DNA of 50,644 bases from a virus (IMGVR_UViG_3300030107_004028:1-50644); one strand, 5' to 3'; positions 1,558-29,816 are shown, counted from the stretch's first letter. Notes: generated by a model from the sequence alone, not told the origin. Numbers and translations: made by a program.

Positions 1558-1559
1558 TT

Positions 1560-3197: not shown

Positions 3198-3220
3198 AAT
3201 AACAAAAAAAGGAAAGTTAT

Positions 3221-10611: not shown

Positions 10612-10620
10612 GGATAAAAA

Positions 10621-11073: not shown

Positions 11074-11099
11074 AAAATATACAATAGAAAGGAAATAGA

Positions 11100-12454: not shown

Positions 12455-12462
12455 TTAAGAAA

Positions 12463-13788: not shown

Positions 13789-14134
13789 TATCTCTCTCCT
13801 TGCATTCGTGACACAATCCTTTTACTAAAGGAATGTTATTATAAACTTCAGGGTCTAAGAAATTTGGTTCAAACTTATTTCTAACTCCTATTTCTATTGC
13901 CCAAGCTCTTCTACATTCAGGACACCTTGTAGGAATTCTTGTTGTAGATATTCTACTTTTATTTTTATTTTTTAGTAGTGCGTTATAGTATGGATTTTGT
14001 TTACTATGCACATATTTATCGACTGCTTCTTTATCAAACCATTCTTCGTCATCAAAATAGTAATACAAAGACATAAAATATGATTTTTCTATCTCCCAGT
14101 CTTCTTTAGACTTGTAATCGTAATTAACTCTCAA
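13775..14134 (-). CDS. Hypothetical protein with CxxC...CxxC zinc finger
   Basis: CPEC and CHEC motifs; TTG start after GGGAG. Confidence 0.6.
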   Translation of the reverse strand: MRVNYDYKSKEDWEIEKSYFMSLYYYFDDEEWFDKEAVDKYVHSKQNPYYNALLKNKNKSRISTTRIPTRCPECRRAWAIEIGVRNKFEPNFLDPEVYNNIPLVKGLCHECKERDNDSN

Positions 14135-14148
14135 AATAACTCCCTATG

Positions 14149-14490
14149 TTACTTATTTAATTGAAATGTAAGTTGGATTAACTCCAACAAATCTTTATAC
14201 CTTATTGTAGCGTATATCTCTCCTCTATCTTCTTTTAGTAATGTAATATCGCAATCGTCTGGTGGTAATAAGTATTGAGCAATGTTTTTTCTAACCTTAC
14301 ACTGCACTTTCATTGTCCTTGACATCTCTTCGTTTAGTAAATATTCTATAACGATATCAACCTCAGGAGAAAGTCCAAGACTTCTTCCGTCGCTACCCCA
14401 AGCTCTCTTTGAGCTAAATCCGTGCTGTTGTGCTACTTCAACACATTCTTTCTCAAACCTGTTCCCTTTTGCTTTTTGCTTGTTTGCCAT
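14149..14490 (-). CDS. Holliday junction resolvase, Hjc-like PD-(D/E)XK
   Basis: KAKGNRFEKE...RAWGS...VDIVI...VQCK. Confidence 0.75.
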   Translation of the reverse strand: MANKQKAKGNRFEKECVEVAQQHGFSSKRAWGSDGRSLGLSPEVDIVIEYLLNEEMSRTMKVQCKVRKNIAQYLLPPDDCDITLLKEDRGEIYATIRYKDLLELIQLTFQLNK

Positions 14491-14568
14491 ATTGATTAAT
14501 TAATCTCCTTCTTACTTTGGATTTTTCTTTTCCAAATTTTCTTCTGTTTCTTCCCATAATTTAATAGA

Positions 14569-14985
14569 TTATTCTCCCTTCTGTCCACATATTTTTTTGC
14601 CTGTCCACAAATCTAAATATCCTACTAATTTATTTATCTTATATTTTTTATCAAATTCAGTCTGTTTTGGCATTTCTCTCATTTCCCACTTATAATTATA
14701 ACGAGACTTATTAAGATTGGTAATATTAAATACATATATATCGTTAGGAGTTCCAACAATATATAAGAATTTTTTATTGAATAAATCTGAATACATAATG
14801 TTGTAAGCATACTTATCAAACTCAATAATATAATTTTCATACTCTTTGTTCCTATATTTAATTTCAATTATGTAATTATTGTTATATGCGTCAAACCTGT
14901 GATACTCATCTTTGCATAAAATAGGCTTATCTTCCTTGAAATGCTCATTTAAGTGCTTTAATACCAATAATTCATTTTTTTTCAT
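14569..14985 (-). CDS. PD-(D/E)XK-like nuclease family protein
   Basis: FDAY...IIEIKYR; very AT-rich. Confidence 0.55.
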   Translation of the reverse strand: MKKNELLVLKHLNEHFKEDKPILCKDEYHRFDAYNNNYIIEIKYRNKEYENYIIEFDKYAYNIMYSDLFNKKFLYIVGTPNDIYVFNITNLNKSRYNYKWEMREMPKQTEFDKKYKINKLVGYLDLWTGKKICGQKGE

Positions 14986-15101
14986 AAATCTCCAAAATTT
15001 TTATCTCGAGAATGCCCCTATAAGCGTGTTTAATTATTTTCCCGATATAACTATCGACTAAAATATGTTTCGTCCATATAGAGGCTATCTCGTTCTTTAT
15101 T

Positions 15102-15380
15102 TTAAAAATTCTCACTTTTTATAGCTTTTATACCTGAATATACATTTCCGTGATGATATGCTTTATATAAATCATCTAAATCTATATAATGATATTCAAG
15201 TTCTAATCCTAATATCTCTTCGTTTTTCAAACCAACATAAAAACCTTCCGAATTTAAGCTTTCGCATATTTTAGAAAGCTCTTTAGGAAATATGCCATAA
15301 TACCTTATTGCAGAAAATTGTCCAATTATTCCAAATTTTTTAAGGTGAGCGAGAATCCTTTTTTTGTTTCTCAATCTCAT
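15102..15380 (-). CDS. Winged helix-turn-helix protein
   Basis: KKRILAHLKKFG.I...AIRYYGI...L...G matches the common small phage HTH pattern. Confidence 0.55.
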   Translation of the reverse strand: MRLRNKKRILAHLKKFGIIGQFSAIRYYGIFPKELSKICESLNSEGFYVGLKNEEILGLELEYHYIDLDDLYKAYHHGNVYSGIKAIKSENF

Positions 15381-15564
15381 TTATCTCCCTATATCTTTTG
15401 CGAAGAATATGGACGAGATATTTTTCTTCCCGTCCAGAAATTTCTTCTATACCTTTTTTACCAAAGGCTAACCTTTTAGTTACGATTACTTCTGTAATTC
15501 CTTTACTCCAACCCATTAAGTCTTGGAATGAATTCATAATATTATTCCATTTAGAAATTTTCAT
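15340..15564 (-). CDS. Hypothetical protein
   Basis: ATG at 15564 downstream of GGGAG; co-oriented with neighbours. Confidence 0.5.
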   Translation of the reverse strand: MKISKWNNIMNSFQDLMGWSKGITEVIVTKRLAFGKKGIEEISGREEKYLVHILRKRYREINEIEKQKKDSRSP

Positions 15565-15707
15565 AATATATTTTATACTCCCTTCTCTATTAATAAAATT
15601 TTTAGCGCCAACCAAAAATCGTATTTGTTTATACGTTTAGTAATAGTATAACAGGATTGGATACCTGCCCGCTTCCTTCTAAAGCGTATTGTGAGAAGGG
15701 AATATAA

Positions 15708-15941
15708 TTAATCGCAACTGTCACAATGATTTGGACCAAATGCGGCTTTAGAATTTTCAATGACGTCTTGTTCAGTCATAGAGTCATTTTCTTTTTCTTC
15801 TGTATATTGAGACTGATATTGATTTTTTATAGACGTTCTAAGATTTACACACAATTCATTCTCTCCTTCACATCTATGTTCTTCTATCATTTCAATTAAA
15901 GCCTTTATTTGCTCTTTATCTAATGTAATATTATAGCTCAT
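15708..15941 (-). CDS. Hypothetical protein
   Basis: 77-aa acidic ORF in the operon. Confidence 0.55.
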   Translation of the reverse strand: MSYNITLDKEQIKALIEMIEEHRCEGENELCVNLRTSIKNQYQSQYTEEKENDSMTEQDVIENSKAAFGPNHCDSCD

Positions 15942-15944
15942 ATG

Positions 15945-16505
15945 TTAAAAAGGTAAGTCGTCTTCCTTCAAAGGTTTACTTACTTCCCTATTTGATTTGA
16001 AAACATTGACTGCAAGAGGAGTTACTCTTTCCTCTCCGTCACTTCCAGTCCACTTGTCGTGAACAACTTTGATATTAACAGGATTACCTGAAATATCAGA
16101 CTCCATTATGTAAGGTAGAAGATATCTTCCTTGCTTGTCTTTATCTATTTCATACCCACAAGCCTCGACAAAAATCATATACCCTTTGTTATTTCCTTGA
16201 TTGTCTTCAAGGTTTGGATATTTTTCTTTGTCAGGAGCTTTAAATCTAAAATAACCTTTAGATTTAACTTCTCTTCCTTTCAATTCAGGATATCTCTCGT
16301 CATCAATAGAATATGTTGCTTCGAATATATCACTAAGATAACTATTCTTCACAACTATGTCTTTCTTGATAATAAGTTTGCTAACAATAGCCTCATATGT
16401 TCCTTCTTCGATTTTATACGATTTATTCCCAGTCGTATCTTCTGAAGGATTATAATAAGCAACATTGCTATCAATGTCATTTAGTAAGTCATTAACATTA
16501 CTCAT
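15945..16505 (-). CDS. Probable single-stranded DNA-binding protein
   Basis: IEEGTYEAIV beta-rich start, acidic tail EDDLPF, adjacent to annealase. Confidence 0.65.
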   Translation of the reverse strand: MSNVNDLLNDIDSNVAYYNPSEDTTGNKSYKIEEGTYEAIVSKLIIKKDIVVKNSYLSDIFEATYSIDDERYPELKGREVKSKGYFRFKAPDKEKYPNLEDNQGNNKGYMIFVEACGYEIDKDKQGRYLLPYIMESDISGNPVNIKVVHDKWTGSDGEERVTPLAVNVFKSNREVSKPLKEDDLPF

Positions 16506-17079
16506 TTTCGTTCTCCTTAGTCACTTTTAGTTTAGACAATACTTTATCGTAATTGCCTTTATTTATTTTTCCAGACTTTAAAGCATAGTCCATTTTATCT
16601 GCGTCTTCTGTGCTCATTTGAGATATTTTAGTAACCAATATATTATATTGCTCTTCCGAAAGAGTGTTGTCAACATATTGTTTTCTATATACATCGTCCG
16701 CAACATTACACAATCTATTTACCGCAACTTTAAAGGCGTCTGAATTTGCTGCTTTTAAGTCATTACCTAAATCGACGTATCCACCACCACTTCTCGATAC
16801 AGCTATTCTGTGAGCAGCGACGGAATCAAAACTTCGAGGAATTCCCTCGTCCATAATTTTTAGACGTCCGTGCACTACTATTGCCTTATCTCCTAATGTT
16901 TCATACTTAATTACCTCCCAAGACCAAATTGGATAGTGTTGGTTTAGACGCCAACGCATATATCCTTCGTCTACATAGTCAAAACCATTTCTACTTTTAA
17001 CTACATCTTGAGGTGTAGATTGCTCTGAAACTTGTTGATGTTTAGATACAATCGTATCTACTTTTACTAACTCATTCAT
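16498..17079 (-). CDS. Rad52/Sak-family single-strand annealing protein
   Basis: YVD...RLN...WSWEV...V.GRL...DLKAA.SDAFK.A. Confidence 0.8.
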   Translation of the reverse strand: MNELVKVDTIVSKHQQVSEQSTPQDVVKSRNGFDYVDEGYMRWRLNQHYPIWSWEVIKYETLGDKAIVVHGRLKIMDEGIPRSFDSVAAHRIAVSRSGGGYVDLGNDLKAANSDAFKVAVNRLCNVADDVYRKQYVDNTLSEEQYNILVTKISQMSTEDADKMDYALKSGKINKGNYDKVLSKLKVTKENENE

Positions 17080-17953
17080 TTATACTCCCATTATTGTATG
17101 GACACAAGTGTCTGACTTCACAAAAAGCCTCGCATTTTCGTCCGTTCCAAGTTTGTTCTGTCGTGCATTTTTCAGGTAAATTGTCGCATTCTAATGCTTC
17201 AACAAGTTTATCTCTTGCACTTAAAAATTTATATTCCAATACTTCATCGTCATATCTTGGTATTTCTATAAGATATATATTCCTATCAAGCCCTCTATCT
17301 CTCGCAACAACAATTCCTCCGTCTCTCAAAGTAACTTGTATATACATTTTATCTACCTCTTGCCCTTTTCTCTCTAATAAATATCTATACCAGTTTAGCT
17401 GCCAACCCCAATCACCGTAGTCTGCTAATCCTTCGTCTCTATACCAATCCTTAACCATTTTAGGACTACCTTTTTTACCCCACTTACCAGACGATTTATA
17501 TTTAGCTCCCGACGGACAAGGTATTTTATTGTAAGTCATACCTAATAATTGAGAACATTTATAAGAGCCTGTATTCTTATAATCTATCAACATCTTTGTT
17601 TCCTTGTCATACAAGTCTACTATTCCCGTTATATCAAATCCTTCTAATTGTTCTTCAAGTAAATGTCTATCGTCTGAATGTTGCTCTAATCGAGCGTGGT
17701 GCATAGTTCCTGCTAATGAGAACGCCCTTTCCTGAGGATTTATATAATATTCTTCTCTCCTCTTTAAGTAAGCCTCACACGTCCCGATTAGCAATTCAGT
17801 CGTCGAAGGTTTTCTATTTACGTCTCTCTCTTTGGACATCTCCATAAGAGTAGGTAAAGTCATACCCATTTTTTCTATGTCTACTTTACCTTTCTTAACG
17901 TCTTCAAAACTTACTTTATCTCCACTTGGGTAGATGAAACCAACTGCTGCCAT
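17072..17953 (-). CDS. Cas4-like PD-(D/E)XK exonuclease
   Basis: GTMHH, ITGIVD...LIDYK, QLNWY, C-terminal Cys cluster C..FC....C. Confidence 0.8.
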   Translation of the reverse strand: MAAVGFIYPSGDKVSFEDVKKGKVDIEKMGMTLPTLMEMSKERDVNRKPSTTELLIGTCEAYLKRREEYYINPQERAFSLAGTMHHARLEQHSDDRHLLEEQLEGFDITGIVDLYDKETKMLIDYKNTGSYKCSQLLGMTYNKIPCPSGAKYKSSGKWGKKGSPKMVKDWYRDEGLADYGDWGWQLNWYRYLLERKGQEVDKMYIQVTLRDGGIVVARDRGLDRNIYLIEIPRYDDEVLEYKFLSARDKLVEALECDNLPEKCTTEQTWNGRKCEAFCEVRHLCPYNNGSINE

Positions 17954-18098
17954 TTTTATTCTCCTTACTATTAACGTAATCTAATATTAATCTATTCAGC
18001 GTTTCTTTCATAGAAACGCCCTCTCTTGCAGTTTTTGTTTTAAACTTTATCCATAATTCTCTATCGAGAACAAAAGATGTTTGAAATTTGTTTTTCAT
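17916..18098 (-). CDS. Ribbon-helix-helix transcriptional regulator (Arc/ParG-like)
   Basis: TSFVLDRELWIKFK...EGVSMKETLNRLILDYV; ATG 18098 lies just downstream of a -10 box. Confidence 0.7.
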   Translation of the reverse strand: MKNKFQTSFVLDRELWIKFKTKTAREGVSMKETLNRLILDYVNSKENKNGSSWFHLPKWR

Positions 18099-18103
18099 AC
18101 CTG

Positions 18104-18133
18104 AATTTAGCAACAAATACATACCTTTGTCAA
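18104..18133 (-). promoter_or_regulatory. Sigma70-type promoter TTGACA-18 bp-TAAATT for the replication operon
   Basis: Plus strand aattta at 18104 and tgtcaa at 18128. Confidence 0.6.
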
Positions 18134-18541
18134 CAAAAACTTTAAAACTTTATTTTATAGTTTCTTTCTCTATTGTTATTAAATCAATAGCATACCATAT
18201 AATATTCCTATAATACTTAAACTCTTTTTGAGATAGTTCAACATTGTCTAATATGTCTCCCAATTTCATTAATCCTTTTACAATTTCAGATATTTTCATT
18301 TTTTCTCTCCATTAGTTTGTCATTTACTTTTTTCATTTTTTTATAAAGCTCAATGTAGCTTTTGTCTTTAAATATAATATTATTTTTATTTAAATGTCCT
18401 TCGTGTTTTATACTCCAAGTTTTGTCTCTCATTTTTCCTCCACTTTTACATTATAGCCTAATTGTCTAAATAGTTTTAATACCTCTGACTTAAAAGATTT
18501 ATAGTCATTCTTTTTTACTTTAATTGTTATATAGTCTTTAC

Positions 18542-18733
18542 TCATTTTTCCTCCCATCCGTCATCAGACGGAGCTTCAAATGTGTCTGATTTTCTAATTT
18601 CAGACGCTATTCCATTATGAGTTAGTTTAAAGTCATAACCCAAGTCTTCTCTTAAAAACTTAACTAACGTCATAATATATCCTTGTATGTCTCTTGCTAA
18701 TTTATCTCTATCCTTTTTTAAGTTCATCGTCAT
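18542..18733 (-). CDS. Small early hypothetical protein
   Basis: ORF overlapping neighbours in the same orientation. Confidence 0.5.
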   Translation of the reverse strand: MTMNLKKDRDKLARDIQGYIMTLVKFLREDLGYDFKLTHNGIASEIRKSDTFEAPSDDGWEEK

Positions 18734-18905
18734 ACTCCTTTAATACGTAGCTTTTTAAATCCCATTTCTTTTGTAGTCTCTTCGCCCAGTCGTCCATTTC
18801 TTCGAGCGACATAGTTTGACTTAAATAAAAGTCTAAAAAGTTTGCAAAATCGTTCTTAACATTTTTCATTTCATAGTTTTTTTTGATATATTTAACTTGT
18901 TTCAT
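18708..18905 (-). CDS. Small early hypothetical protein
   Basis: AGGAG RBS. Confidence 0.55.
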   Translation of the reverse strand: MKQVKYIKKNYEMKNVKNDFANFLDFYLSQTMSLEEMDDWAKRLQKKWDLKSYVLKEYDDELKKG

Positions 18906-19140
18906 TTTCAGTCTCCTTGAAGTGTTCTTCTATCATTTTTAATATTATATAAGCCTCGTCTCTACCACCTTCCAATTTAGCAACTTCTTCACTTGCCTCG
19001 TCGTAATATCTTCCGTCATTGTCGCTATTTTCCCAAACATAATCTATATCTTTTTGATTATATTTTATTGTAAGTTTACAAGTGTCTTTTATTTTATTTA
19101 ATAATCTCCTATCTCTATTCATAGTTTTATTTTCGTCCAT
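18892..19140 (-). CDS. Small early hypothetical protein
   Basis: 82-aa ORF in tight operon. Confidence 0.55.
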   Translation of the reverse strand: MDENKTMNRDRRLLNKIKDTCKLTIKYNQKDIDYVWENSDNDGRYYDEASEEVAKLEGGRDEAYIILKMIEEHFKETENETS

Positions 19141-19142
19141 TG

Positions 19143-19424
19143 TTAATTTTCTTCGTCATATACTAAATCATTCGTCATATTGTCCATAGCGTAATCTAAA
19201 TTCTTCTCTCTAATAGCGTCCTCTATTCCTTCGTTAAATTTAGCAACCTCTGTCTGAATTATTCTAATTTCTTCTTCAAATTCCTTTAACATTTCTTCGT
19301 CGTCTAATATAATTTTATCAGTATTTTCGTCTATTCTGAAATATACAGAAGAAGGTTTTATCCATTTAATATCTCTATGGTTTAAAATTTCTCTTAACTC
19401 AATTATAAATTCTTGTTCAGTCAT
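19143..19424 (-). CDS. Acidic early hypothetical protein
   Basis: AGGAG RBS; Asp/Glu-rich. Confidence 0.6.
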   Translation of the reverse strand: MTEQEFIIELREILNHRDIKWIKPSSVYFRIDENTDKIILDDEEMLKEFEEEIRIIQTEVAKFNEGIEDAIREKNLDYAMDNMTNDLVYDEEN

Positions 19425-19447
19425 TTATTTCTCCTTTGCAATTATTT

Positions 19448-19470
19448 GGCGACGCCAATTTGACGTCGCC
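19448..19470 (-). other. GC-rich intergenic RNA stem-loop
   Basis: Minus strand GGCGACGUCA-AAU-UGGCGUCGCC, 10-bp stem with one G-U pair. Confidence 0.55.
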
Positions 19471-19495
19471 TATTAACACAATATATCCTAACTAT

Positions 19496-19699
19496 TTAAT
19501 CGTTGAGTTCATATTTATTGCAAATTTCGTCGAAATTATTTAACAAATATTTATACTCTCTTTTGTCAAGTCCTATCATTTTTCTTACGACGGGATTATA
19601 CATATTGTATTCTCCACTATCTCTTATTTCTATAAATTCAAGAACGTCTGACTTGTTTATGTTTATATTGTCATTTTCTATACTATTTTGTAGTATCAT
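19496..19699 (-). CDS. Conserved-type small phage hypothetical protein
   Basis: F.EIRDSGEYNMY motif; AGGAG RBS. Confidence 0.6.
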   Translation of the reverse strand: MILQNSIENDNININKSDVLEFIEIRDSGEYNMYNPVVRKMIGLDKREYKYLLNNFDEICNKYELND

Positions 19700-19741
19700 T
19701 TATCGTCTCCTATCTGTTTATACATTTACTAAATTTCTGAT

Positions 19742-20527
19742 TTAATTATCTTCTTCTTCACATACTAAATCAATTGACAGATGTTGTCTAAATTCTTCTT
19801 GCATTCTCTCTCGAACGTGGACATTATTTCTATCAAATTCATATCTATAAAATTGCTCTACTCTATCGTTTACTGGATTAGATTCATCTGCGTCTAAAAT
19901 TCTTCTCTCAATTTGAGTTTCGTCGCAAAATCCTTCAACTCCATTATTTTTATTTTGATTATCCGACGATAATTCGAGTTTTTTACTGATTACATTATTT
20001 AAAACCAATAAGGCATTATGTAATATATCTTTATTTATACTTACTTTCCTATCTTTATATATATTTTGTCCAAATGAATTATTCACAACATAAATACATA
20101 ATAACTTATTTATAAAAAGAATAAAACCTAACTTTACATTTTCTTCAATTCCCGTCGTTTTCGTTAAAACATCTCTAATAAAATTTGGTATTCTACTTAA
20201 AAACCTTTCAAAATATTTATCGTAATAGTCGTTATCTGTCCAATGCTCATAAAAACTCGACGGGATTTCCTCTTCGTTATATTCTTCGATTAAAGAGTCG
20301 TAAAAATGACTTAAAAAATCATTAATATTTTCTTCGATATTATACGTTCCTTCTGACAAATATAAATCTGCAAAGTCTTCACTTTTTCTTCTATCTTCTA
20401 ATCCTAAATTATAAAAAATATTTAATATTTCTCTATTTGTATTTACGGAATTATCTTCACTCAACTTAATTTCATTTTTTAAAGACGTTATAACGTCCAA
20501 TAGCTTGTAATCTTCTTTTTTAATCAT
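19742..20527 (-). CDS. Hypothetical early protein (261 aa, acidic)
   Basis: AAGGA RBS; long ORF. Confidence 0.65.
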   Translation of the reverse strand: MIKKEDYKLLDVITSLKNEIKLSEDNSVNTNREILNIFYNLGLEDRRKSEDFADLYLSEGTYNIEENINDFLSHFYDSLIEEYNEEEIPSSFYEHWTDNDYYDKYFERFLSRIPNFIRDVLTKTTGIEENVKLGFILFINKLLCIYVVNNSFGQNIYKDRKVSINKDILHNALLVLNNVISKKLELSSDNQNKNNGVEGFCDETQIERRILDADESNPVNDRVEQFYRYEFDRNNVHVRERMQEEFRQHLSIDLVCEEEDN

Positions 20528-20538
20528 CTGTTGTCCTT

Positions 20539-22401
20539 TTAATATGTAATGTAATTATTAATATATTCTAAATCTACTGGCTTAATTCTTCTCGACTGAT
20601 TATTTACGTTTGTGAAATCTGAAAGTCTTAATAGTCTATGGTTTAAATAGTCTATTGTCTCAAATCTGTTTTTGTTTTCGTCGAATTTTACTACTCTGTT
20701 GATTCTATTGTAACAATCGTATAAATGATTATTTTCTGTCATTTCACTATTGTTTATTTCGTCGAATCTATCTTCAAAATATTGTATGGTGTCAGTAGGT
20801 AATTCAATCATTTTATACATACTATTTTTAGTTATTAGAGGATGATTATCTCTCGACGACGTTCTTTTAAGTCCTAAATTAAGAACGGCTTGTGGAACGG
20901 CGATTAAATCATCTCTATCGTCCTCTGAAAATTCGAGTAAGTCCATTATACCATTCGAAACGTCCTTATACTCTTTTATTGATACGCTACTCCCATTTTC
21001 ATATCCGTTTATTGCTTTTTCATCAGCTTGATAATTATAGTGTTCGTCGTGTAAAAAGATTGCTCTCTCTGATAAATCTTCACTTGGTGAAATACCTTCT
21101 CTAATAGAATTTATATATTTGTTGTATCCTAAAATCGTTTTTGATACATCAAAATCATTTTCTTTTAAAATATTGTCTCCTATTCGTCGTGCCGTGTCAA
21201 ACATCTGTGTCCAAAATATATTCCAATGCAACATCTTTTTTGGATTTAACGTTCCACTATGGTATCTAATCTCGACGCCTCCATTCGCTTGGAATTTAGG
21301 GTGAAAATTTAGTCCGTGGTATCTTTTGTCGTTATACTTGTCGTTTGTATAATTTCCGTTGTCATACCAAAATTGTATAAACTCGTCTCTACTCGTCGCA
21401 TATTTAAACGAGTTCCAACCCTGACTTACGGGATAACTCCAACGTCCTTGTAATCTCGAAGACGGCAAACTTGCAAAAATATGGGGCTCTGATAACTTAA
21501 CAAGCGACGTTAATACTGAACAATGTATCCAATCAAAGTCTCTTGTGTCTATATGTATATGGTAACCACAACGAGAAGAAATAAATCCGTCGATATTGCT
21601 GTTCTTTAAAGTCGAAGTTATTGTCTTCATATCGTCGTAAAAAATATCTCCCCGACGGGGTTGTAACACTAACTCGTGTCCGTATGGACAATCTTCCGAC
21701 GTTATACTTCCGTCGTGTTCAATATGTCCAGTTCCTCTATCTAAACTTTCGTCGTGTAATCTATTTTTGGACGCTAAATTTTTATGTAATAATTTATCAA
21801 TAACGTCTGACGGCACTCCATTATGGTTAAATTCTATTTCGCTACCAACATAACGTTTCGATTTTATCTTTTTAAAGCTGTCTTTTAATTCGTTGTTTGT
21901 ATTATCTATAAAATCTTTTAAAGCGTCTTTATTTAAATTCATATTCTCTAAATTGCCTTGTTCGTCAAAATTATATAATTGTTTCGACGGGTGTATAAAA
22001 TCTCTGTTATTCTCTACAAATTCTTTTTCAAATACCTCCCATTCTGGATAATCGTCGCTATTTTCCATATAACAATATTCGCAAACTGGCTCGTCTCTAT
22101 GGTTAAAATGAATTTCGTCTCTATGAACCTCTGCGTCGCATTCTGCACAACTAGAAAAAGTATCTTCGTAACAATCGTCGCAATAATTTTCTCCGTGCAT
22201 TTCTGAATAACGGCTTGAATCGTTATGTATTTCATCCTGACAACCATAACAAGTAGTAAATTCTTCGTCATAACAATTCTGACAGACGTCTTCGCCGTTT
22301 GATACTCTTATCAAATCTTCTTCCAATACATTCACGTCGTCGCTACAACAATCGCAATTTACTATTCTTACTTGTGTCTCGTCGTTATTTCTTATTGGCA
22401 T
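20539..22401 (-). CDS. Amidoligase (COOH-NH2 ligase, glutamine synthetase-like fold) with N-terminal tandem zinc ribbons
   Basis: VGSEIEF, HDGSI, GHELV, CGYHIHID, RYHGLN, VEIRYHSGT; six CxxC-type pairs in the first ~110 aa. Confidence 0.88.
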   Translation of the reverse strand: MPIRNNDETQVRIVNCDCCSDDVNVLEEDLIRVSNGEDVCQNCYDEEFTTCYGCQDEIHNDSSRYSEMHGENYCDDCYEDTFSSCAECDAEVHRDEIHFNHRDEPVCEYCYMENSDDYPEWEVFEKEFVENNRDFIHPSKQLYNFDEQGNLENMNLNKDALKDFIDNTNNELKDSFKKIKSKRYVGSEIEFNHNGVPSDVIDKLLHKNLASKNRLHDESLDRGTGHIEHDGSITSEDCPYGHELVLQPRRGDIFYDDMKTITSTLKNSNIDGFISSRCGYHIHIDTRDFDWIHCSVLTSLVKLSEPHIFASLPSSRLQGRWSYPVSQGWNSFKYATSRDEFIQFWYDNGNYTNDKYNDKRYHGLNFHPKFQANGGVEIRYHSGTLNPKKMLHWNIFWTQMFDTARRIGDNILKENDFDVSKTILGYNKYINSIREGISPSEDLSERAIFLHDEHYNYQADEKAINGYENGSSVSIKEYKDVSNGIMDLLEFSEDDRDDLIAVPQAVLNLGLKRTSSRDNHPLITKNSMYKMIELPTDTIQYFEDRFDEINNSEMTENNHLYDCYNRINRVVKFDENKNRFETIDYLNHRLLRLSDFTNVNNQSRRIKPVDLEYINNYITY

Positions 22402-22422
22402 AAATTACTCCTACTATTTAAT

Positions 22423-23628
22423 TTAATATGGAATTTCTGTTTGCTCTTCGTCGATATAACAACCACAATGGTTTTTTATTATATCTTCGTCGCAATACAT
22501 ACACGTATCGTCGTATTCTTGCATATCTCCAAACGTTAAATCTTCTTCTTTTACTAAATCTCCGTTCTTTTTGACGTAATACCAACGTTCTTCTTGCTTG
22601 TCTTCAAACCAATTATCGTCGTTTTTTCTATAAGATACTCCATAGTATTGAGAACATTTTTGAAGTTTCCAATTGTTTTCTTCTTCTTTATATCCCTTCA
22701 CAAAATCGTCGTATTGATTTTGAACAACTTTGGAATAATCAAAATCTGACATATCTAATAATTCATTTTTTAAATTACCATTTTCGTCGTAATAATCGTA
22801 ATTATCGTCTCTATATGTCCACTTATCGTAGTCCGTTCCATTCCAAATTGATGAGTAAGAATTTAACTTACTATAATTCACTATCGATACAAACCTACTC
22901 TCATATTCAAATTCCGTCTTAACTCTATTCGTTCCGTTCTTATCGAATTTTGTAACGTCGTAACTATATAATGTATTAGTCTCTAATGGAAACGTATCTA
23001 TATCTAATTCCAATTCCATAAAAGCGTCCTCTAAAAAATCTTCTTCTGACGCATAAAATAATATTTGTCTATCTTCCCAATAACCTATATACAACGGACG
23101 ATTTTCTTCTCTACATAAATGTAATACGTTTATATCGTCTTTAACAAATGCTAATGCAAAGTCGCTATCAAAATGTTTAACGGCATTCTGAATATCTGAA
23201 TTAACGTCGATTGATTTAAATATTAATTGACTATCTACTGGACAATTCTTGCCTAATTTCTTTTGCATTTCGTCGATATTATAAACACAGCCGTTGTGCG
23301 TTCCTATTGTATTACCTACTTGGAACGGGTGTGCGTTGGCTACACTAATTGCTCCTTCCGTCGCAAAACGTGTATGTCCTAATAATATATTATTGTCTTT
23401 TAATTCTTTTAATGCTTGTCGAAAGTGTTTAGATTTCACGAATTTACTGCTTTCGTCTAACGTCTTATAAATCATTGAGTTCGTCCCAATAGTAGCAACT
23501 CCCGACGACTGATTACCTCTAATCTCACTATCTATTGCAATTAATTTAATTGCTTTTTTTAACTTGTTAAAGTCCTTATCTGATAAATCAGACGTCGGCG
23601 ATTTTGCTATTCCATAAATTCCACACAT
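22423..23628 (-). CDS. Class II (Ntn) glutamine amidotransferase with acidic C-terminal extension
   Basis: MCGIYG start, RG..SSG, GHTRFATEG, NAHPF, HNG, DS, RPL, FYASE. Confidence 0.92.
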   Translation of the reverse strand: MCGIYGIAKSPTSDLSDKDFNKLKKAIKLIAIDSEIRGNQSSGVATIGTNSMIYKTLDESSKFVKSKHFRQALKELKDNNILLGHTRFATEGAISVANAHPFQVGNTIGTHNGCVYNIDEMQKKLGKNCPVDSQLIFKSIDVNSDIQNAVKHFDSDFALAFVKDDINVLHLCREENRPLYIGYWEDRQILFYASEEDFLEDAFMELELDIDTFPLETNTLYSYDVTKFDKNGTNRVKTEFEYESRFVSIVNYSKLNSYSSIWNGTDYDKWTYRDDNYDYYDENGNLKNELLDMSDFDYSKVVQNQYDDFVKGYKEEENNWKLQKCSQYYGVSYRKNDDNWFEDKQEERWYYVKKNGDLVKEEDLTFGDMQEYDDTCMYCDEDIIKNHCGCYIDEEQTEIPY

Positions 23629-23656
23629 AATTTTATATCTCCCTATTTAATTTTTT

Positions 23657-23712
23657 TGACGTCGCAGGAAAAAGAGGAAAGTCAAAAAGAGGTAAAAAAC
23701 CTACGACGCCAA
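23657..23712 (-). other. 13-bp RNA stem in the 5' leader of the GATase/amidoligase operon
   Basis: Minus strand UUGGCGUCGUAGG...CCUGCGACGUCAA pairs fully using two G-U wobbles. Confidence 0.6.
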
Positions 23713-23770
23713 TTAATATTGTTTCGACGTTTAAAGTCGACATAATGTATTTTCTCTCTCCCACGCACAT

Positions 23771-23799
23771 AATATAATAATAAAATATGACAATGTCAA
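23771..23799 (-). promoter_or_regulatory. Early promoter TTGACA-17 bp-TATATT
   Basis: aatata 23771, tgtcaa 23794. Confidence 0.7.
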
Positions 23800-23828
23800 G
23801 GAAAAAATACAAAAAGATTTTATCCGTC

Positions 23829-24008
23829 TTAAAGGTATAAATCTTCGTCTTTTTTATCGAAACTCTCGACTAAATCTAACATATCATTATTACGTAATAT
23901 GTCTTTTATTTCGTCGCTCGATATAGCTTTAATAAGCATATCTAAAACCAATTCAGCGTCTAATAATCCACTATCTATTAGACGTAATAAAAGTTTTTTA
24001 TAGTCCAT
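23829..24008 (-). CDS. Small acidic early protein (59 aa, not in ORF track)
   Basis: AGGAG RBS; MDYKKLLLRLIDSGLLDAELVLDMLIKAISSDEIKDIL... Confidence 0.6.
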   Translation of the reverse strand: MDYKKLLLRLIDSGLLDAELVLDMLIKAISSDEIKDILRNNDMLDLVESFDKKDEDLYL

Positions 24009-24047
24009 AACTATCTCCTTCCTTCGTTTAATGTTAAAATTCGTTGC

Positions 24048-24272
24048 CTATAAATATACTTTGTCTTTTTTAATCTTCCAAAAAGTATCTTGTATTGACG
24101 GGATTAATTCCGTCTTCTTATAAATCCACTCCGTCTTTAAACAATACTTATAATCTCCTAATATAAAGTAATTAAAAGAGCTCGAAGAATCAACCTTATA
24201 CGACGATACGGGAAGACTATTTAATTTACTAAAAAATTCCTTTCTTGTAATAGTAATTTTATCTGTCGTCAT
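24048..24272 (-). CDS. Small early hypothetical protein
   Basis: GGAG RBS before ATG 24272. Confidence 0.5.
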   Translation of the reverse strand: MTTDKITITRKEFFSKLNSLPVSSYKVDSSSSFNYFILGDYKYCLKTEWIYKKTELIPSIQDTFWKIKKDKVYL

Positions 24273-24460
24273 AGCTATCTCCATAATCGTCTAAATACTT
24301 TTTAAATCTCGACGTTCTAAATCGTGGGTTAAAGTTACTAAACATAATACATAAGTCCTCGACTAATTCCGTCTTATTGTATAATTTATGCCTAATCAAC
24401 CAATTAGCAATTCCTATAAAATGTCGTTTCGTCATCTCTTACTCCTTTATTGTTTTAATT

Positions 24461-24489
24461 AATATACGTCTTATTTTTAACATTGTCAA
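24461..24489 (-). promoter_or_regulatory. Early promoter TTGACA-17 bp-TATATT
   Basis: aatata 24461, tgtcaa 24484. Confidence 0.7.
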
Positions 24490-24497
24490 GACGTTTA

Positions 24498-24962
24498 TTA
24501 TTTACTTTGTCTGTATAACTTATCGAACGTTGAATCGTTTAATAAATTAAATTTATTGTCCATAAACGTATTAATGTCGTCGCCAATATTTATATTAACG
24601 TCTCCATTTTGTCTGTTAATACGTCTGTGTCTTGTAATTGAATTATTATTAATTACGACTTGTAATAGTATATCTTCGTCGTTTTCTTCTAATAAATCGA
24701 CACATACATAACTAATCTGACGCTTTAAATAATCTTTAACGTCTTTTAAATTATACTTTGGTGACGCAGTTTCTACTGCCAGTCCTTCAATATAATACGT
24801 CGTTATAGTATCAAATGTCCCGTCGTCTCTTATTTGTATTTCAAAAGATAAATCAGGCGTTCCGTCTGTTAAGTCTTGTATGTCGTCTAATACTTTACCA
24901 GTTCCGTCACAACAAGAACAACAAACTAAATCCCTATCTTTTTTATAATCGTCGGCTTTCAT
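24498..24962 (-). CDS. Acidic early hypothetical protein, first gene of the leftward arm
   Basis: GGGAG RBS; downstream of promoter at 25017..25045. Confidence 0.65.
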   Translation of the reverse strand: MKADDYKKDRDLVCCSCCDGTGKVLDDIQDLTDGTPDLSFEIQIRDDGTFDTITTYYIEGLAVETASPKYNLKDVKDYLKRQISYVCVDLLEENDEDILLQVVINNNSITRHRRINRQNGDVNINIGDDINTFMDNKFNLLNDSTFDKLYRQSK

Positions 24963-25016
24963 ATTCTCTCCCGTCGGTTAATGTTCTAATTTTTAATGGT
25001 TTTTTGTCCATAAGTG

Positions 25017-25045
25017 AATATAGTAAATTCTACAATAAATGTCAA
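25017..25045 (-). promoter_or_regulatory. Early promoter TTGACA-17 bp-TATATT
   Basis: aatata 25017, tgtcaa 25040. Confidence 0.7.
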
Positions 25046-25086
25046 TAAAAGAATATAAATAAATTTTATCCGTCGTTTGCGACATT

Positions 25087-25161
25087 GCTCTATCTGGCTA
25101 ATATAAAAAACAATCGTCGAACAATATAGCTCTATCTGGCTTAAATAAAAGCTAATCGTCG
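25087..25161. repeat. Imperfect 42-bp-period tandem repeat GCTCTATCTGGCT...AATCGTCG (related copy GCTCTATCTAGC near 26167)
   Basis: Units begin at 25087 and 25129. Confidence 0.75.
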
Positions 25162-25206
25162 TTAAAAATTGCTATTCGTCGTAGAAAAAAAAAGATTATT
25201 TAATTG

Positions 25207-25387
25207 TTGACATTCTCAAAAAGTCTTCGTAAATTTCAAACTTTTTTAAAATAAATAAAAAAATACTTGCTTTTGTAATTTTAAATCGTTAAATTGCAGG
25301 GTGGACGTGGGCGGGTATAGTAGCTCTAAACGTCGTATAAATAAATATTTAAAAACACTTGCTTTTTAAAAATAACGTCAATATATT
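25207..25387 (+). promoter_or_regulatory. Three tandem sigma70-type promoters, all with 17-bp spacers
   Basis: TTGACA 25207/TAAATT 25230; TTGCTT 25267/TAAATT 25290; TTGCTT 25359/TATATT 25382. Confidence 0.65.
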
Positions 25388-25422
25388 ATAGGGTTACTTT
25401 AATTAATAAAAAGGATATACAT

Positions 25423-25920
25423 ATGAGTTTAATAGAAAAAGGCGTAGAAATAGAGGTAAATAAAACCAAGCCAATGAACACTACACAATGGAAAGAACAC
25501 TTGTCAGGGTTTGAAAGGCGTTGGGATGAGCTTGCTGAAGATAAAGAAGAGCTTAATCTTCTGAAATCTATGGACAAGATGCCAAAAGAAACCATCTCTA
25601 AAAAAGAGAAGAGGATTCAAAGAATGGAAGAGCGTTTGTTGAATGAGCAAGAGCTACATTTTGCCACTTACCACGAAAAAGGTAAGAAGAGAAGAGCATC
25701 ATCTTCCAAGATTGAGGCGTCGATTCTTACTATGTTAGAAGGTAAAGATAAAGAGAAATTGACTGAAATGATTTCAAAGCATAGAAGTCAGGGAATTGCT
25801 ATTACTAAATTCTTACGTGAGAAGAATGTAGTAACAACAAAAACGAAGAACGGAGGAGACGAAGTTGAGGCTTATCCTACGTGCTCTACTAAATGGGACA
25901 ACGATAACGAAGTTTCTTAA
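25423..25920 (+). CDS. Stand-alone charged coiled-coil hypothetical protein
   Basis: AAGGA RBS; own promoters and terminator. Confidence 0.75.
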   Translation: MSLIEKGVEIEVNKTKPMNTTQWKEHLSGFERRWDELAEDKEELNLLKSMDKMPKETISKKEKRIQRMEERLLNEQELHFATYHEKGKKRRASSSKIEASILTMLEGKDKEKLTEMISKHRSQGIAITKFLREKNVVTTKTKNGGDEVEAYPTCSTKWDNDNEVS

Positions 25921-25933
25921 GTAGAGAGAAGAG

Positions 25934-25964
25934 GACGGGACATATTTTTGTCCCGTCTTTTTTT
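25934..25964 (+). terminator. Rho-independent terminator
   Basis: GACGGGACA-tatttt-TGTCCCGTC followed by a T run. Confidence 0.85.
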
Positions 25965-25984
25965 GCCCTTTTTTTATTTTTTTA

Positions 25985-26092
25985 TTGACTTTGTCATTTT
26001 TAAGTGGTAAATTTGAGTAGGGCATACCATATTTTAAGGCGTAAAAAATAATTAAAAAAACACTTGCTTTTTATTTTTAAAACACGTAAATT
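25985..26092 (+). promoter_or_regulatory. Two sigma70-type promoters with no adjacent ORF
   Basis: TTGACT 25985/TAAATT 26008; TTGCTT 26064/TAAATT 26087; both 17-bp spacers. Confidence 0.6.
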
Positions 26093-26096
26093 GGAA

Positions 26097-26117
26097 GGGA
26101 GGTGAGGGAGGGAAGGG
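26097..26117 (+). other. Putative G-quadruplex-forming tract
   Basis: GGG-AGGTGA-GGG-A-GGG-AA-GGG in an otherwise very AT-rich region. Confidence 0.55.
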
Positions 26118-26130
26118 ATAAAATAATAGA

Positions 26131-26150
26131 TGTGGATAACTTGTGGATAA
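26131..26150 (-). promoter_or_regulatory. Two tandem perfect DnaA boxes (TTATCCACA)
   Basis: TGTGGATAA at 26131-26139 and 26142-26150. Confidence 0.75.
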
Positions 26151-26306
26151 CTTTTCGCCGAGTTTTGCTCTATCTAGCATAATTAAAAAATAATTATTAT
26201 AGCACCATCATCTATATAGCACCGTCTTTAGCATTGATTAGGGGTATTTTGATTAAACTCTACATTTTATAGGGGTCGAGGATATAAATAAAAATTACAA
26301 ATAGTA

Positions 26307-26347
26307 TTGACAATAGATAAAAGTATTATTAACTTGTGTTAATTTAA
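26307..26347 (+). promoter_or_regulatory. Promoter TTGACA-17 bp-TAACTT with 22-bp repeat, copy 1
   Basis: TTATTAACTTGTGTTAATTTAA at 26326, repeated at 26626. Confidence 0.65.
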
Positions 26348-26365
26348 CAAATAAAAGGAATTGAT

Positions 26366-26632
26366 ATGAAAGCAAAAGAATTAAAAGAGATACTAAAAAA
26401 TATTCCAGACGATAATCCAATAGGATTTTATATTGTAGGGGTAGAATGGACTGATAAATACGATATTAATTTAGGAAATCCAGAAGTTATTTGTTCTAAT
26501 GGAATAAATGATGAGGGTTGGGTAGATTTTGGATTTCAAATACCAGATTCTATAAATTCAAGAACGATAAACAAAACAAAAATGATATCTGAATTGAATA
26601 AAATACTTGATATTGAAAAAAAGCCTTATTAA
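26366..26632 (+). CDS. Hypothetical protein
   Basis: AAGGA RBS; MKAKELKEILKNIPDD is a common small phage protein start. Confidence 0.65.
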   Translation: MKAKELKEILKNIPDDNPIGFYIVGVEWTDKYDINLGNPEVICSNGINDEGWVDFGFQIPDSINSRTINKTKMISELNKILDIEKKPY

Positions 26633-26647
26633 CTTGTGTTAATTTAA
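26607..26647 (+). promoter_or_regulatory. Promoter TTGATA-17 bp-TAACTT with 22-bp repeat, copy 2
   Basis: Exactly 300 bp from copy 1. Confidence 0.6.
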
Positions 26648-26669
26648 TAAACTAAATTAGGAGTATGAT

Positions 26670-27257
26670 ATGATGTATGATAATGAAATTAATAGAGATG
26701 AACACTATGACGAAGGGAATAGAATGTCTACTATTGCGTGGCGTTGTGGCGACTTGTTGGAAGCTAACGGGTTTAAAGAGCTTAAAACGTCTATTCCGTC
26801 GTTTCGTCCTTACTTATTAAGTAAGTATAATGAAAAATTCTATAGCGACGAATATAAGGAATTTAAGTTAGATAATCCTTGTATAGATATATACTACAAT
26901 AAGCAATTAAAAGTATATGCTACGTTGAACGTAGATACTGAAGTAATATCCTTTGAATATAGAAGCGACAATAACGAGGCATATCTTGGATACTTTGATG
27001 TTGTTGAAAACATAGACGTTCATTGGTTGTTTGGAGATTGGAGGAAAAGAACAAACGATACGGATAGAGGTATAATGGAAGATGTATGTTGTGAACGTGA
27101 TGGTGACGGGTGTTATCACGATACTAATCTATATTGGGCAATAGATACAAATCTAATACGTAATGGACGTAACTTGTTGGTATGGGTTAAAGATAGTGGT
27201 GACTTTGAGAGAAGAATAGAGAAAATAGGAAGAAGTAAATATATGATAGTTAAATAA
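26670..27257 (+). CDS. Hypothetical protein
   Basis: AGGAG RBS; 195 aa. Confidence 0.7.
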   Translation: MMYDNEINRDEHYDEGNRMSTIAWRCGDLLEANGFKELKTSIPSFRPYLLSKYNEKFYSDEYKEFKLDNPCIDIYYNKQLKVYATLNVDTEVISFEYRSDNNEAYLGYFDVVENIDVHWLFGDWRKRTNDTDRGIMEDVCCERDGDGCYHDTNLYWAIDTNLIRNGRNLLVWVKDSGDFERRIEKIGRSKYMIVK

Positions 27258-27278
27258 TAGTCATATCATACCACGCTG

Positions 27279-27329
27279 AACGCCTTGCTTCGTCCCTAAC
27301 GGCTACTATGGGACGTTGTAGGGCGTTTT
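27279..27329 (+). terminator. Long imperfect hairpin, probable terminator
   Basis: AACGCC...CGTCCC...GGGACG...GGCGTT then T run, after ORF 26670..27257. Confidence 0.5.
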
Positions 27330-27690
27330 GTGTCAAATCCATTTTCGATTTTCAACGTAATTCTCTATTTTGCAAAATCTAAAAGACCCGACGCCCTTGT
27401 GAAATACAAGAGGCACACACAAAATCTTGCATTTTTTTGAGAATGGGATGTTTTTTTCAACTTTTCTGTAAAATTTCGGGGAAATACTCTGAAATAATAT
27501 TTTTTTCTTGATTAAAATTATTTTTTTTTGGAAAATTTGTCGCGTTACTCTGAGTATTGAGTATTAAGGATAAATAAGATAGTAAAGATTTATTTTTTTA
27601 AGAGCACCGAGTATTAAAGGTAAACATTTTCTTTTCCTTTTGTCAACATCTTTTTGAAATTATTTATTTTAAACTATTTTCATTTAGTTG

Positions 27691-27720
27691 TTGACTTGTG
27701 TATTAATATAAGTGTAACTT
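27691..27720 (+). promoter_or_regulatory. Promoter TTGACT-18 bp-TAACTT opening the rightward arm
   Basis: ATG 27730 follows after 9 nt with no SD sequence. Confidence 0.6.
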
Positions 27721-27729
27721 ACGTACACA

Positions 27730-27957
27730 ATGGCTGAAAAACCATCAAAAGAACAACTAATTGAAGAAGCAGAAGCTATCATAGAAAAGCACTTCGAACA
27801 AGTACCTCATCTGGGAGAACCAAACGAAGAAGCACTGAATGGTCTTAGAAGAGAAGTTTTGAACGGAAAGCTCAAAAAAGAAAGAAAAAAATATGAAGAT
27901 GCAATCGAATGGATAAGAAGAAAAACAAAGAAACGCTTCGAGAAGGGAGAAAAATGA
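27730..27957 (+). CDS. Hypothetical protein
   Basis: 75-aa charged ORF, ATGA-coupled to the next gene. Confidence 0.6.
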   Translation: MAEKPSKEQLIEEAEAIIEKHFEQVPHLGEPNEEALNGLRREVLNGKLKKERKKYEDAIEWIRRKTKKRFEKGEK

Positions 27958-28247
27958 AACTAAATATAGGTGGACACGAATATACTATAGAAGAAAGAAC
28001 ATTAAAAGCAAGTGACTCTACAAAAGAGCTATATGGCAGTCATTTAGTAAAAGATAATGTAATTTTTATTAATAAGGACATAGCACAATCAAGAAGGAGA
28101 GAAACCTTGATACACGAGGTCTTGCACGCCGTTTTTTACAACAGAGGCATAGAACACGATGAACCATTAATAGAAACCCTATCAAATGGGCTGCATCAAT
28201 TAGGAGTAGGAGACTATTTATGGAAAAAAGCACGAAAAAAATCATAG
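27954..28247 (+). CDS. HEXXH zinc metallopeptidase-like protein
   Basis: ETLIHEVLHA...HDE; ATG 27954 after GGGAG. Confidence 0.75.
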   Translation: MKLNIGGHEYTIEERTLKASDSTKELYGSHLVKDNVIFINKDIAQSRRRETLIHEVLHAVFYNRGIEHDEPLIETLSNGLHQLGVGDYLWKKARKKS

Positions 28248-28390
28248 AAGCTAAAAAATCAGGGAATAAAGAGCTTGTACAGAAATTACAGCAAGAATAC
28301 GATAAAGAGTTAAAAATAATAAGAAGTTTAGAAGATGTTAAGGATAAGGAGGATTTTCCGAAAGATGACACAAAAAACAACAACAGCTGA
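28220..28390 (+). CDS. Small hypothetical protein (56 aa, not in ORF track)
   Basis: AGGAG RBS; fills the gap between neighbours. Confidence 0.5.
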   Translation: MEKSTKKIIEAKKSGNKELVQKLQQEYDKELKIIRSLEDVKDKEDFPKDDTKNNNS

Positions 28391-28724
28391 AGATGTAGTA
28401 GCATATATTAAAGAAAATTACCCCGAAACAGAAGGAATGTTTCAAAAAGAGCTAAATAATATGTATATGACTTTTTGCAAGAAACAGTACGATTATGGCC
28501 CAAATAACATAGCAATGGGTACATTGTTGAAAAACGATAAAGAAATCAGCACATCTCTATTAGGTATAATAGTAAGGATGAATGATAAGATAAACAGACT
28601 ACTTAACCTATCAACCAAACACGACCTCAAAGCTCAGAATGAGCCAATTGAGGATGCGTTTTTAGATATAGCAATATATTGCATAATGGCGTTAATAGTC
28701 AAATCAAGGAAATGGAGCAAATAA
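28365..28724 (+). CDS. DUF1599 / nucleotide modification-associated domain 1 protein
   Basis: KKQYDYG..NI...RMNDKINRL...EPIEDAFLDIAIY; AGGAGG RBS. Confidence 0.75.
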   Translation: MTQKTTTAEDVVAYIKENYPETEGMFQKELNNMYMTFCKKQYDYGPNNIAMGTLLKNDKEISTSLLGIIVRMNDKINRLLNLSTKHDLKAQNEPIEDAFLDIAIYCIMALIVKSRKWSK

Positions 28725-28828
28725 TGGCTAAAAAGAAAACAAAAAAGAAATCTGTTAAAAAGCTAAACTTTTGGCAAAGAGTAGCTAATGGGTGGAAAAA
28801 GTTCTTTTCATCTGCTTGGAGCAAATAA
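28724..28828 (+). CDS. Cationic amphipathic micro-protein (34 aa, not in ORF track)
   Basis: MAKKKTKKKSVKKLNFWQRVANGWKKFFSSAWSK; TAATG-coupled on both sides. Confidence 0.55.
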   Translation: MAKKKTKKKSVKKLNFWQRVANGWKKFFSSAWSK

Positions 28829-29553: not shown

Positions 29554-29561
29554 GAGAAACA

Positions 29562-29807: not shown

Positions 29808-29816
29808 GTATATTAA

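Follow-up and report, generated by a model that had tools for sequence, protein, structure and literature searches.

The viral contig IMGVR_UViG_3300030107_004028, a marine phage genome analysed here over its entire 50,644 bp (the window), carries a quasi-periodic lattice of the short palindrome CGWCG (W, A or T) in its early operon. The genes are oriented rightward from 25423 to the end and in 1-12454, and a single leftward arm occupies 12463-24962. The lattice has a spacing of about 21.7 bp and runs through genes and non-coding DNA. It shows selection at synonymous sites, the positions of its sites are conserved, and its period is specific to the lineage, being near 21.7 bp in some members and near 18 bp in others. 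At about even odds (a probability near 0.5), we read the lattice as binding sites that tile the early operon, on which a symmetric DNA-binding protein would form a coat.

A selected, quasi-periodic CGWCG lattice

The original prediction described 15700-27400 as saturated with the tetramer GACG/CGTC, and the counts behind it were reproduced. The class II glutamine amidotransferase (GATase) gene holds 5 GACG and 18 CGTC, together 23, with 1 GATG and 0 CATC; the composition estimates given earlier, about 3 and about 7, follow from the base frequencies of the window. As stated earlier, GACG/CGTC is absent from 43021-44220, where 14 GATG and 3 CATC are found, and four CGTC are present in non-coding 25061-25190. 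The whole region 15700-27400 contains 176 GACG/CGTC and 40 GATG/CATC, compared with 93 and 399 in the remaining 38,943 bases. The density in the rest of the genome predicts 27.9 GACG/CGTC for this region. Total CpG is raised as well (412 vs 161), and the CpG odds ratio is 2.00 in 19742-25422 vs 0.44 in late DNA.

The tetramer is real, yet it is part of a larger unit. GTCG/CGAC is equally enriched, and the four most enriched words reduce to a single degenerate word, GWCG, together with its complement CGWC. GWCG is preceded by C in 53% of its copies in 16498-25422, vs 10% in late DNA, giving the palindrome CGWCG. This palindrome is found 51 times in 20539-25422 (4,884 bp), 14 times in 16498-20538 and 6 times in late DNA (32,528 bp). 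The share of CpGs that lie inside the motif is 68% in 20539-24962 vs 26-29% in 1-12462 and 30579-50644, and CpGs outside GWCG/CGWC are hardly raised in 20539-24962. No flank information for a longer motif was detected past position -1 of GWCG, and a Markov analysis of 5- and 6-mers gave nothing stronger than CGWCG. The selected unit is GWCG/CGWC, with CGWCG as its full form, and it is symmetric over the strands. Independence of reading frame was overstated for GACG itself, as 54 of the 71 coding-strand copies in the genes of 19742-24962 are an Asp codon followed by G (GAC-G). It stands for the remainder: the opposite orientation and the sister word usually fall in a different frame, and the motif is just as dense in non-coding DNA.

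Site densities by segment (Table 1) verified both the rise from the helicase gene toward about 25 kb and the fall past about 27.3 kb. The array begins sharply at the divergent promoters near 25.0-25.2 kb and decays down the leftward operon.

Codon bias does not account for the enrichment. In the genes of 16498-27257, C is used over T at third positions in 46% of cases before G and in 18-21% otherwise; the corresponding values in late genes are 16% and 20-24%. Asp codons before G end with C 85 times and with T 17 times in the genes of 16498-27257, vs 62 and 249 times in late genes, and before non-G bases the C/T choice for Asp does not change. Because the C preference is confined to positions before G, the effect is one of sequence context and not of codons. 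NCG codons are also raised, and non-coding sites likewise.

An amino-acid-preserving test was applied to the genes of 19742-24962, in which the protein was kept and the codons were drawn from late-gene usage. The observed and expected numbers were 71 and 18.2 for GACG, 28 and 2.3 for CGTC, 48 and 7.0 for CGAC, and 21 and 1.9 for GTCG. The four motif words jointly reached 168 vs 29.4 expected, while GATG fell to 8 vs 49 expected. Pure avoidance of GATG fails as an explanation, since its loss of 41 copies is exceeded more than threefold by the gain of 139 motif words, which is seen in both orientations. An increase in both orientations is what recognition of double-stranded DNA would be expected to give. 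Controlling for regional CpG did not remove the enrichment, as shown by the share of CpGs in the motif and by spacing that is non-random against synonymous potential sites. The "positively selected sequence code" of the original prediction holds and is sharper than first noted, being a palindromic pentamer arranged in a periodic lattice.

The periodic spacing was measured on 129 site centres in 19742-25422. The 128 nearest-neighbour spacings include 13 of 21 bp and 8 of 22 bp, spacings of 4-17 bp are rare (12 of 128), and a second cluster lies at 42-45 bp. The autocorrelation of pairwise distances peaks near 21.5, 43.5, 65, 87, 109, 131 and 153 bp. Spectral analysis scores the 21.5-bp period at 6.4 and its 11.0-bp harmonic at 6.9, compared with a maximum of 5.1 in 300 randomisations that kept the codon phase; ten control words scored at most 3.4. 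In the strictest null, the same number of sites was drawn from the 372 positions where synonymous codons permit a site. The observed score under this null was 5.8 vs a maximum of 5.48 in 500 draws, and 24 spacings of 20-23 bp were observed vs a mean of 7.6 and a maximum of 16.

The lattice crosses gene and codon structure. There are 28 spacings of 20-23 bp, of which 15 are not divisible by three, and runs continue across gene boundaries and the 5' untranslated region, as at 24658, 24679, 24700, 24720, 24742 and 24764. Distances of 1-2 kb still prefer 21.75-21.8 bp. Strict three-site patterns are rare, even within known loci. Further down the operon, in 16498-19742, the best period is 21.25 bp and is weak (z 3.5). 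An iteron or tandem-repeat array was considered and rejected: there is no head-to-tail 17-22-bp unit, the spacers have no conserved signal, and Tandem Repeats Finder reported only short two-copy arrays, none of them spanning the lattice.

Conservation of the lattice among marine relatives

Relatives were gathered via the terminase and the helicase from IMG/VR contigs of many marine samples. A terminase relative is encoded on 338 IMG/VR contig stretches; 80 loci, at least 81% identical, were kept. The GATase as sole query found one locus. Two clades were distinguished. Clade A (helicase at least 71% identical) has a CpG- and motif-rich block at the same place, and its sister, clade B (helicase about 50% identical), has neither a motif block nor a lattice. 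The densities in clade A and clade B orthologs are 25.3 vs 2.2 sites per kb for the GATase, 21.8 vs 4.3 for the amidoligase, 14.4 vs 3.3 for the exonuclease, and 8.5 vs 3.2 for the helicase. A foreign block is rejected as the explanation, as these backbone orthologs are motif-rich in clade A and poor in clade B and the site positions are conserved.

When the loci were centred on the gene of an Arc-like protein, the density jumped at the operon start and then decayed; in locus L163, for example, the sites per kb were 3, 2, 5 and 5, followed by 38, 24, 30, 19, 13 and 9. The core genes differ among relatives and the motif is retained. Most small ORFs (open reading frames) of the core have a homolog in one related contig only, which indicates that the motif is maintained over changing gene content. 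The hypervariable gene content lies in 18150-20527 and 23633-27957, and the flanking backbone is 75-98% identical. Several ORFs of the core are very acidic. The first leftward gene (24498-24962) returned one unnamed viral cluster from the ESM Atlas (score 0.77) and nothing else.

Site positions in the window were compared with those in L081, its nearest relative in the core (about 81% DNA identity). Of 176 motif tetramers, 136 are identical (77%); the unchanged fraction is 57.5% over all tetramers and 58.8% for CpG tetramers outside the motif. Site turnover comprises 39 sites found only in the window and 78 found only in L081. L081 has the same 21.75-bp lattice, with a score of 9.8.

At least 75 sites in 5 kb were present in 54 loci, and 26 of the 54 had a periodicity score of at least 4, scores which are inflated by relatedness. 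The best period in these 26 loci rounds to 18 bp in 20 loci, 17 bp in three, and 19, 22 (L081) and 6 bp in one each. The pooled periods are 21.7 and 17.9 bp, each with a harmonic. Within the GATase orthologs, 53 other clade-A members have a period of 18.0 bp (z 11.8, inflated by relatedness), and the group formed by the window and its nearest relatives has one of 21.75 bp (z 8.7). Because one protein family carries two different periods, a protein repeat is not the cause.

One clade-A lineage (L190, L191, L085, L013 and L014) lacks the array and has the full backbone, with a helicase 84% identical. Unlike other clade-A members, it contains GATC, at 24-28 sites per locus, and GATC is 0 in nearly all clade-A relatives. 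This suggests that the L190 lineage has a different host or has lost the pressure that maintains the array. An alternative motif was sought in the sister clade and in the array-less lineage, and no lattice was found there. Words of the TAGA, AGAGA and CTCTA type are 2-5-fold more frequent in array-less early arms (clade-B L122-L160 and L190, first 8.5-10 kb) than in late genes, with no periodicity, and this may reflect codon and amino-acid usage.

A proposed protein coat and the alternatives

In the mechanism that we propose, the leftward early operon carries a DNA-level code over its protein code, with CGWCG or four of its five bases placed every 21-22 bp or so. Each site would dock one two-fold symmetric DNA-binding protein. 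The spacing would equal the footprint of the protein, so that the sites tile the DNA, and the coat would spread over the operon from the promoter outward. Such a coat would shield or silence the DNA that is expressed first; its role may be protection from nucleases, shut-off of the early genes or retention of the entering DNA. Protein binding, coating and the purpose of the coat are all inferred.

Several features point in this direction. A palindrome enriched on both strands is consistent with recognition of double-stranded DNA by a two-fold symmetric protein. The exclusion zone together with a preferred spacing suggests a footprint. The motif stays constant while the spacing varies by lineage, which would be expected if a protein is the ruler. 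As the array starts at the promoters and fades along the operon, its role appears tied to the first DNA expressed, perhaps the first to enter the cell. The original prediction had listed binding sites, methylation marks and decoys as possible roles, and the periodic spacing would favour the first of these over the other two.

A number of observations weigh against a protein coat. The global phase over 5.7 kb is not significant in the window (Rayleigh 10.9 vs a null maximum of 12.3); the lattice is therefore one of local runs with phase slips, and phase coherence is clearer in L081. No conserved feature was found in the spacers (73-80% A+T), and no degenerate sites were found at the midpoints of the 42-45-bp gaps. 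The 18-bp spacing does not correspond to an integral number of turns of the helix, and placement on the same helix face therefore fails for most relatives. L162 and L082, with a helicase 98% identical to that of the window, have 7 CGWCG in 5 kb, fewer sites and no clear period; their core differs despite the near-identical backbone, which indicates that the core can be exchanged between close relatives. With a crude ORF call in relatives, GAC was raised also where no G follows (0.52 vs 0.64 before G). Many loci share a contig or lie on near-identical contigs, so the locus counts overstate independence.

The search for a binding protein gave a further point of this kind. Gene models were ORFs picked in this analysis, and family scans covered part of the 66 ORFs. 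No binding protein was found among them, and Pfam and PHROGs gave nothing for the small ORFs in the lattice. All conserved backbone genes, the Arc-like gene included, are also present in the array-less L190/L013 lineage. The Arc-like (ribbon-helix-helix, RHH) protein of 68 aa has weak matches to ParG and to an Arc-like repressor. Its AlphaFold model has two helices with a pLDDT (predicted local distance difference test) of 63, all RHH matches in Foldseek were non-significant (E >0.5), and the homodimer prediction gave a score of 0.36 (mark 0.42). Among the helicase loci, those of clade A carry its gene in 34 of 39 cases and those of clade B in 0 of 41. The protein is an unlikely binder, as its gene also occurs in the array-less L190/L191/L085 lineage. 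Since arrays are found only in GATC-free genomes, a host factor or host-specific pressure is as likely as a phage protein, and the binder may be a host protein.

A broader form of the proposal is put forward tentatively: in an abundant clade of marine phages, a kilobase-scale CGWCG lattice of lineage-specific period, set into the coding sequence of the operon expressed first, would template a coat of protein, perhaps of host origin, by which the incoming DNA is shielded, timed or reeled in. If so, the lattice would be a new class of sequence-encoded phage chromatin. Should the lattice dock a protein, selection on hundreds of synonymous, and even amino-acid, positions would impose a structural DNA code at kilobase scale, and a step in the first minutes of infection would have gone unrecognised in phages common in ocean metagenomes. 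The two lattice constants would then be a natural experiment on how a DNA ruler co-evolves with whatever reads it. Short periodic motifs that cross frames escape both gene callers and repeat finders, and similar codes may exist elsewhere.

The alternative that survives best, though we consider it unlikely, is that CGWCG is the substrate of a methyltransferase, hypermodifying enzyme or nicking enzyme, from host or phage, that marks or prepares the early DNA. A 5-bp palindrome with a W centre is typical of Type II sites, and CGWCG is the Hpy99I recognition site (PMC2699513). The genome encodes a DUF1599 protein ("nucleotide modification associated domain 1"), an amidoligase, a GATase and a gamma-glutamyl cyclotransferase, and the conserved site positions would fit a substrate. 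Enzyme substrates need neither fixed spacing nor an exclusion zone, however, and both are strong here. No methyltransferase or nuclease family, and no Hpy99I-like methyltransferase or endonuclease family, was detected among the window proteins scanned. The amidoligase, GATase and DUF1599 genes are present in the array-less lineage, and the first two also in the sister clade. Exposure to an Hpy99I-like enzyme would be expected to make a phage lose the site and not multiply it.

Less probable again is a mechanical code without any protein, in which G+C clamps every 18-22 bp in DNA of 75-80% A+T limit melting or set bendability. Such a code could affect how the last DNA is packaged, how the first DNA is ejected, or how the DNA behaves under supercoiling driven by transcription. 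The A+T-rich spacers without other signal agree with it, as does a density gradient that points toward one operon end. The absence of other G+C-rich palindromes from the zone would leave few "safe" clamps. A clamp, however, needs no exact palindrome, and the density of CGWCG is about 57 times its late-DNA value, with little increase in CpGs outside the motif. That close relatives have two distinct lattice constants also fits a protein ruler better than DNA physics.

A signal in the early mRNA is improbable, be it cleavage by an RNase, recognition by an RNA-binding protein, or small hairpins controlling how long the transcripts last. The array does coincide with one transcription unit and decays along it, and mRNA-sense GACG is the commonest word. 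Both orientations are nevertheless enriched after protein control, the full unit is palindromic, and five sites lie upstream of both divergent promoter-like sites. Complementarity between neighbouring sites is at chance (13 vs 12.1 in the window, 18 vs 14.8 in L081), and no Rfam family was matched. A functionless by-product of codon usage, CpG level, word avoidance, mutation bias or a recent foreign block is very improbable: the zone does avoid many words (GTAC, CTAG, GGTC/GACC, CCWGG and GATG), its proteins are richer in Asp, and trinucleotide frequencies in a Markov model would already yield 106 of the 153 GACG/CGTC observed in 16498-25422, but the excess depends on context at synonymous sites, the GATG loss is far below the motif gain, the periodic spacing and conserved positions contradict it, and the motif is kept over non-homologous clade-A genes while sister-clade orthologs lack it.

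Known systems and genome context

The lattice matches no described system that was found, and word searches of the main texts of open-access literature found no description of such an array. RHH arrays (Arc, MetJ metboxes, ParG, ParR and omega) consist of 4-8-bp boxes at fixed spacing that are bound cooperatively by dimers, and the metbox AGACGTCT contains GACG/CGTC. The lattice resembles them in its short spaced boxes, and an Arc-like protein is encoded in the operon. RHH arrays are non-coding and tens to a few hundred bp long, whereas the lattice extends through 5-9 kb of genes and comprises upward of 150 sites. An RHH operator or centromere array is disfavoured, as the Arc-like gene does not track the presence of the array; no partition ATPase was found among the proteins scanned. 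SeqA forms filaments and reads arrays of hemimethylated GATC, a short palindrome at helical-turn spacing. The motif here is a different one, and GATC is absent from the arm and nearly absent from the genome. Iterons of plasmids and phages are conserved 17-22-bp units, often 22 bp apart, few in number and non-coding. The repeat length of the lattice is in this range and putative DnaA boxes are nearby, whereas only 4-5 bases per unit are fixed.

Protein p6 of phi29 is described as binding one dimer per 24 bp, with the DNA wrapped around a protein scaffold, and as acting in the early-to-late switch (PMC10899789). It recognises a bendability pattern in place of a motif, and its complex starts to form at either end of the genome (PMC10899789). 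The lattice likewise has a fixed repeat along the DNA (about 21.7 or about 18 bp, known here from sequence alone); unlike p6, it has a discrete palindrome at each position and lies in coding DNA. The p6 family is absent from the family matches of the proteins scanned, most of which have no Pfam or PHROG family.

The first-step-transfer DNA of T5 is the part exposed to EcoRI and CRISPR, with paired DnaA boxes in the stop region (10.1101/866236). The early arm here resembles the first-entering arms of T5 and T7 in having its own sequence rules, and two perfect DnaA boxes flank the lattice. The word-free zones and DnaA boxes are suggestive of an echo of T5 first-step DNA, an analogy only. The T5 and T7 arms are known for avoided words and non-coding repeats; in the window, a selected periodic motif lies inside genes.

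Structural genes recognised in the window encode the large terminase, portal, major head protein and tail fibres, and other genes encode a DnaB-like helicase, a small-terminase-like protein and a DnaQ-like exonuclease. No DNA or RNA polymerase was found among the window ORFs scanned, and no tRNA genes were found in the window. In a collection of cultured phages, the terminase had matches below 30% identity, the portal had no protein match and the region had no DNA match. A recombination module is located at 14149-17953. Amidoligase_2, class II GATase, gamma-glutamyl cyclotransferase (GGACT) and a DUF1599 "nucleotide modification associated" protein coexist in the window (20539-23628, 28335-28724 and 30744-31139), and this set could carry out a gamma-glutamyl-type modification of protein or base.

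Table 1 Coordinates of lattice segments, genes, regulatory elements and word-free zones in the window. Densities are GWCG plus CGWC sites per kb.
Feature	Position	Strand	Details
Gradient tail	12463-16497		7.7 per kb; to end of leftward operon (helicase gene); no periodicity detected
Gradient middle	16498-20538		18.1 per kb
Dense coding segment	20539-24962		35.3 per kb
Intergenic segment	24963-25422		32.6 per kb
Lattice core	20539-25422		Amidoligase and GATase genes, five small ORFs, divergent intergenic region; spacing peak 21-22 bp
Right shoulder	25423-27257		First rightward genes; 10.9 per kb; CpG raised, only 43% of CpGs in motif
Remaining DNA	1-12462, 27258-30578, 30579-50644		2.9-4.5 per kb
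Class II GATase gene	22423-23628	-	Example gene of the original prediction; 21.75-bp lattice
Amidoligase_2 gene	20539-22401	-	Cys-rich repeats at N terminus; inside lattice
Arc-like (RHH) protein gene	17916-18122	-
Exonuclease match	17072-17953		Four cysteines C-terminal
193-aa protein	16498-17079		PHROG of no known role
RusA-like resolvase match	14149-14490
Leftward promoter-like site	25017-25045	-	TTGACA, 17-base spacer, TATATT; 11 of 12 consensus positions
Rightward promoter-like site	25207-25235	+	TTGACA, 17-base spacer, TAAATT; 10 of 12 consensus positions
Two 42-bp direct repeats	25084-25167	+	Between promoters; each with GCTCTATCTGGCT and AATCGTCG
Two perfect tandem DnaA boxes	26131-26150	-	TTATCCACA, 11 bp apart; genome's only perfect ones
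GTAC-free zone	9344-27722
CTAG nearly absent	12228-26174		One site
GGTC/GACC-free zone	16922-26274
CCWGG-free zone	13346-30822

Both promoter-like sites came from a consensus scan of the 460-bp gap between the arms, and the five motif sites upstream of both lie at 25073-25179, in the non-coding DNA between them. Directly to the right of the lattice is a 445-bp non-coding stretch (25921-26365) that contains both DnaA boxes. It starts with a G+C-rich hairpin followed by a T run (about 25935-25965, as read by eye), and holds a GGAAGGGAG repeat and a third copy of the GCTCTATCT element known from the 42-bp repeats. This stretch is a possible origin of replication, or possibly a control site that depends on DnaA.

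The word-free zones, among them zones without GGCC and GCGC, are nested around the leftward arm (9343-30822). They look like restriction-site avoidance confined to early DNA. CATG (about 115 expected) and CCGG are each 0 in the whole genome, and both vary among clade-A relatives. The four GATC copies of the genome all lie in a 0.9-kb stretch of higher G+C at 49057-49970, which may be a recent insert.

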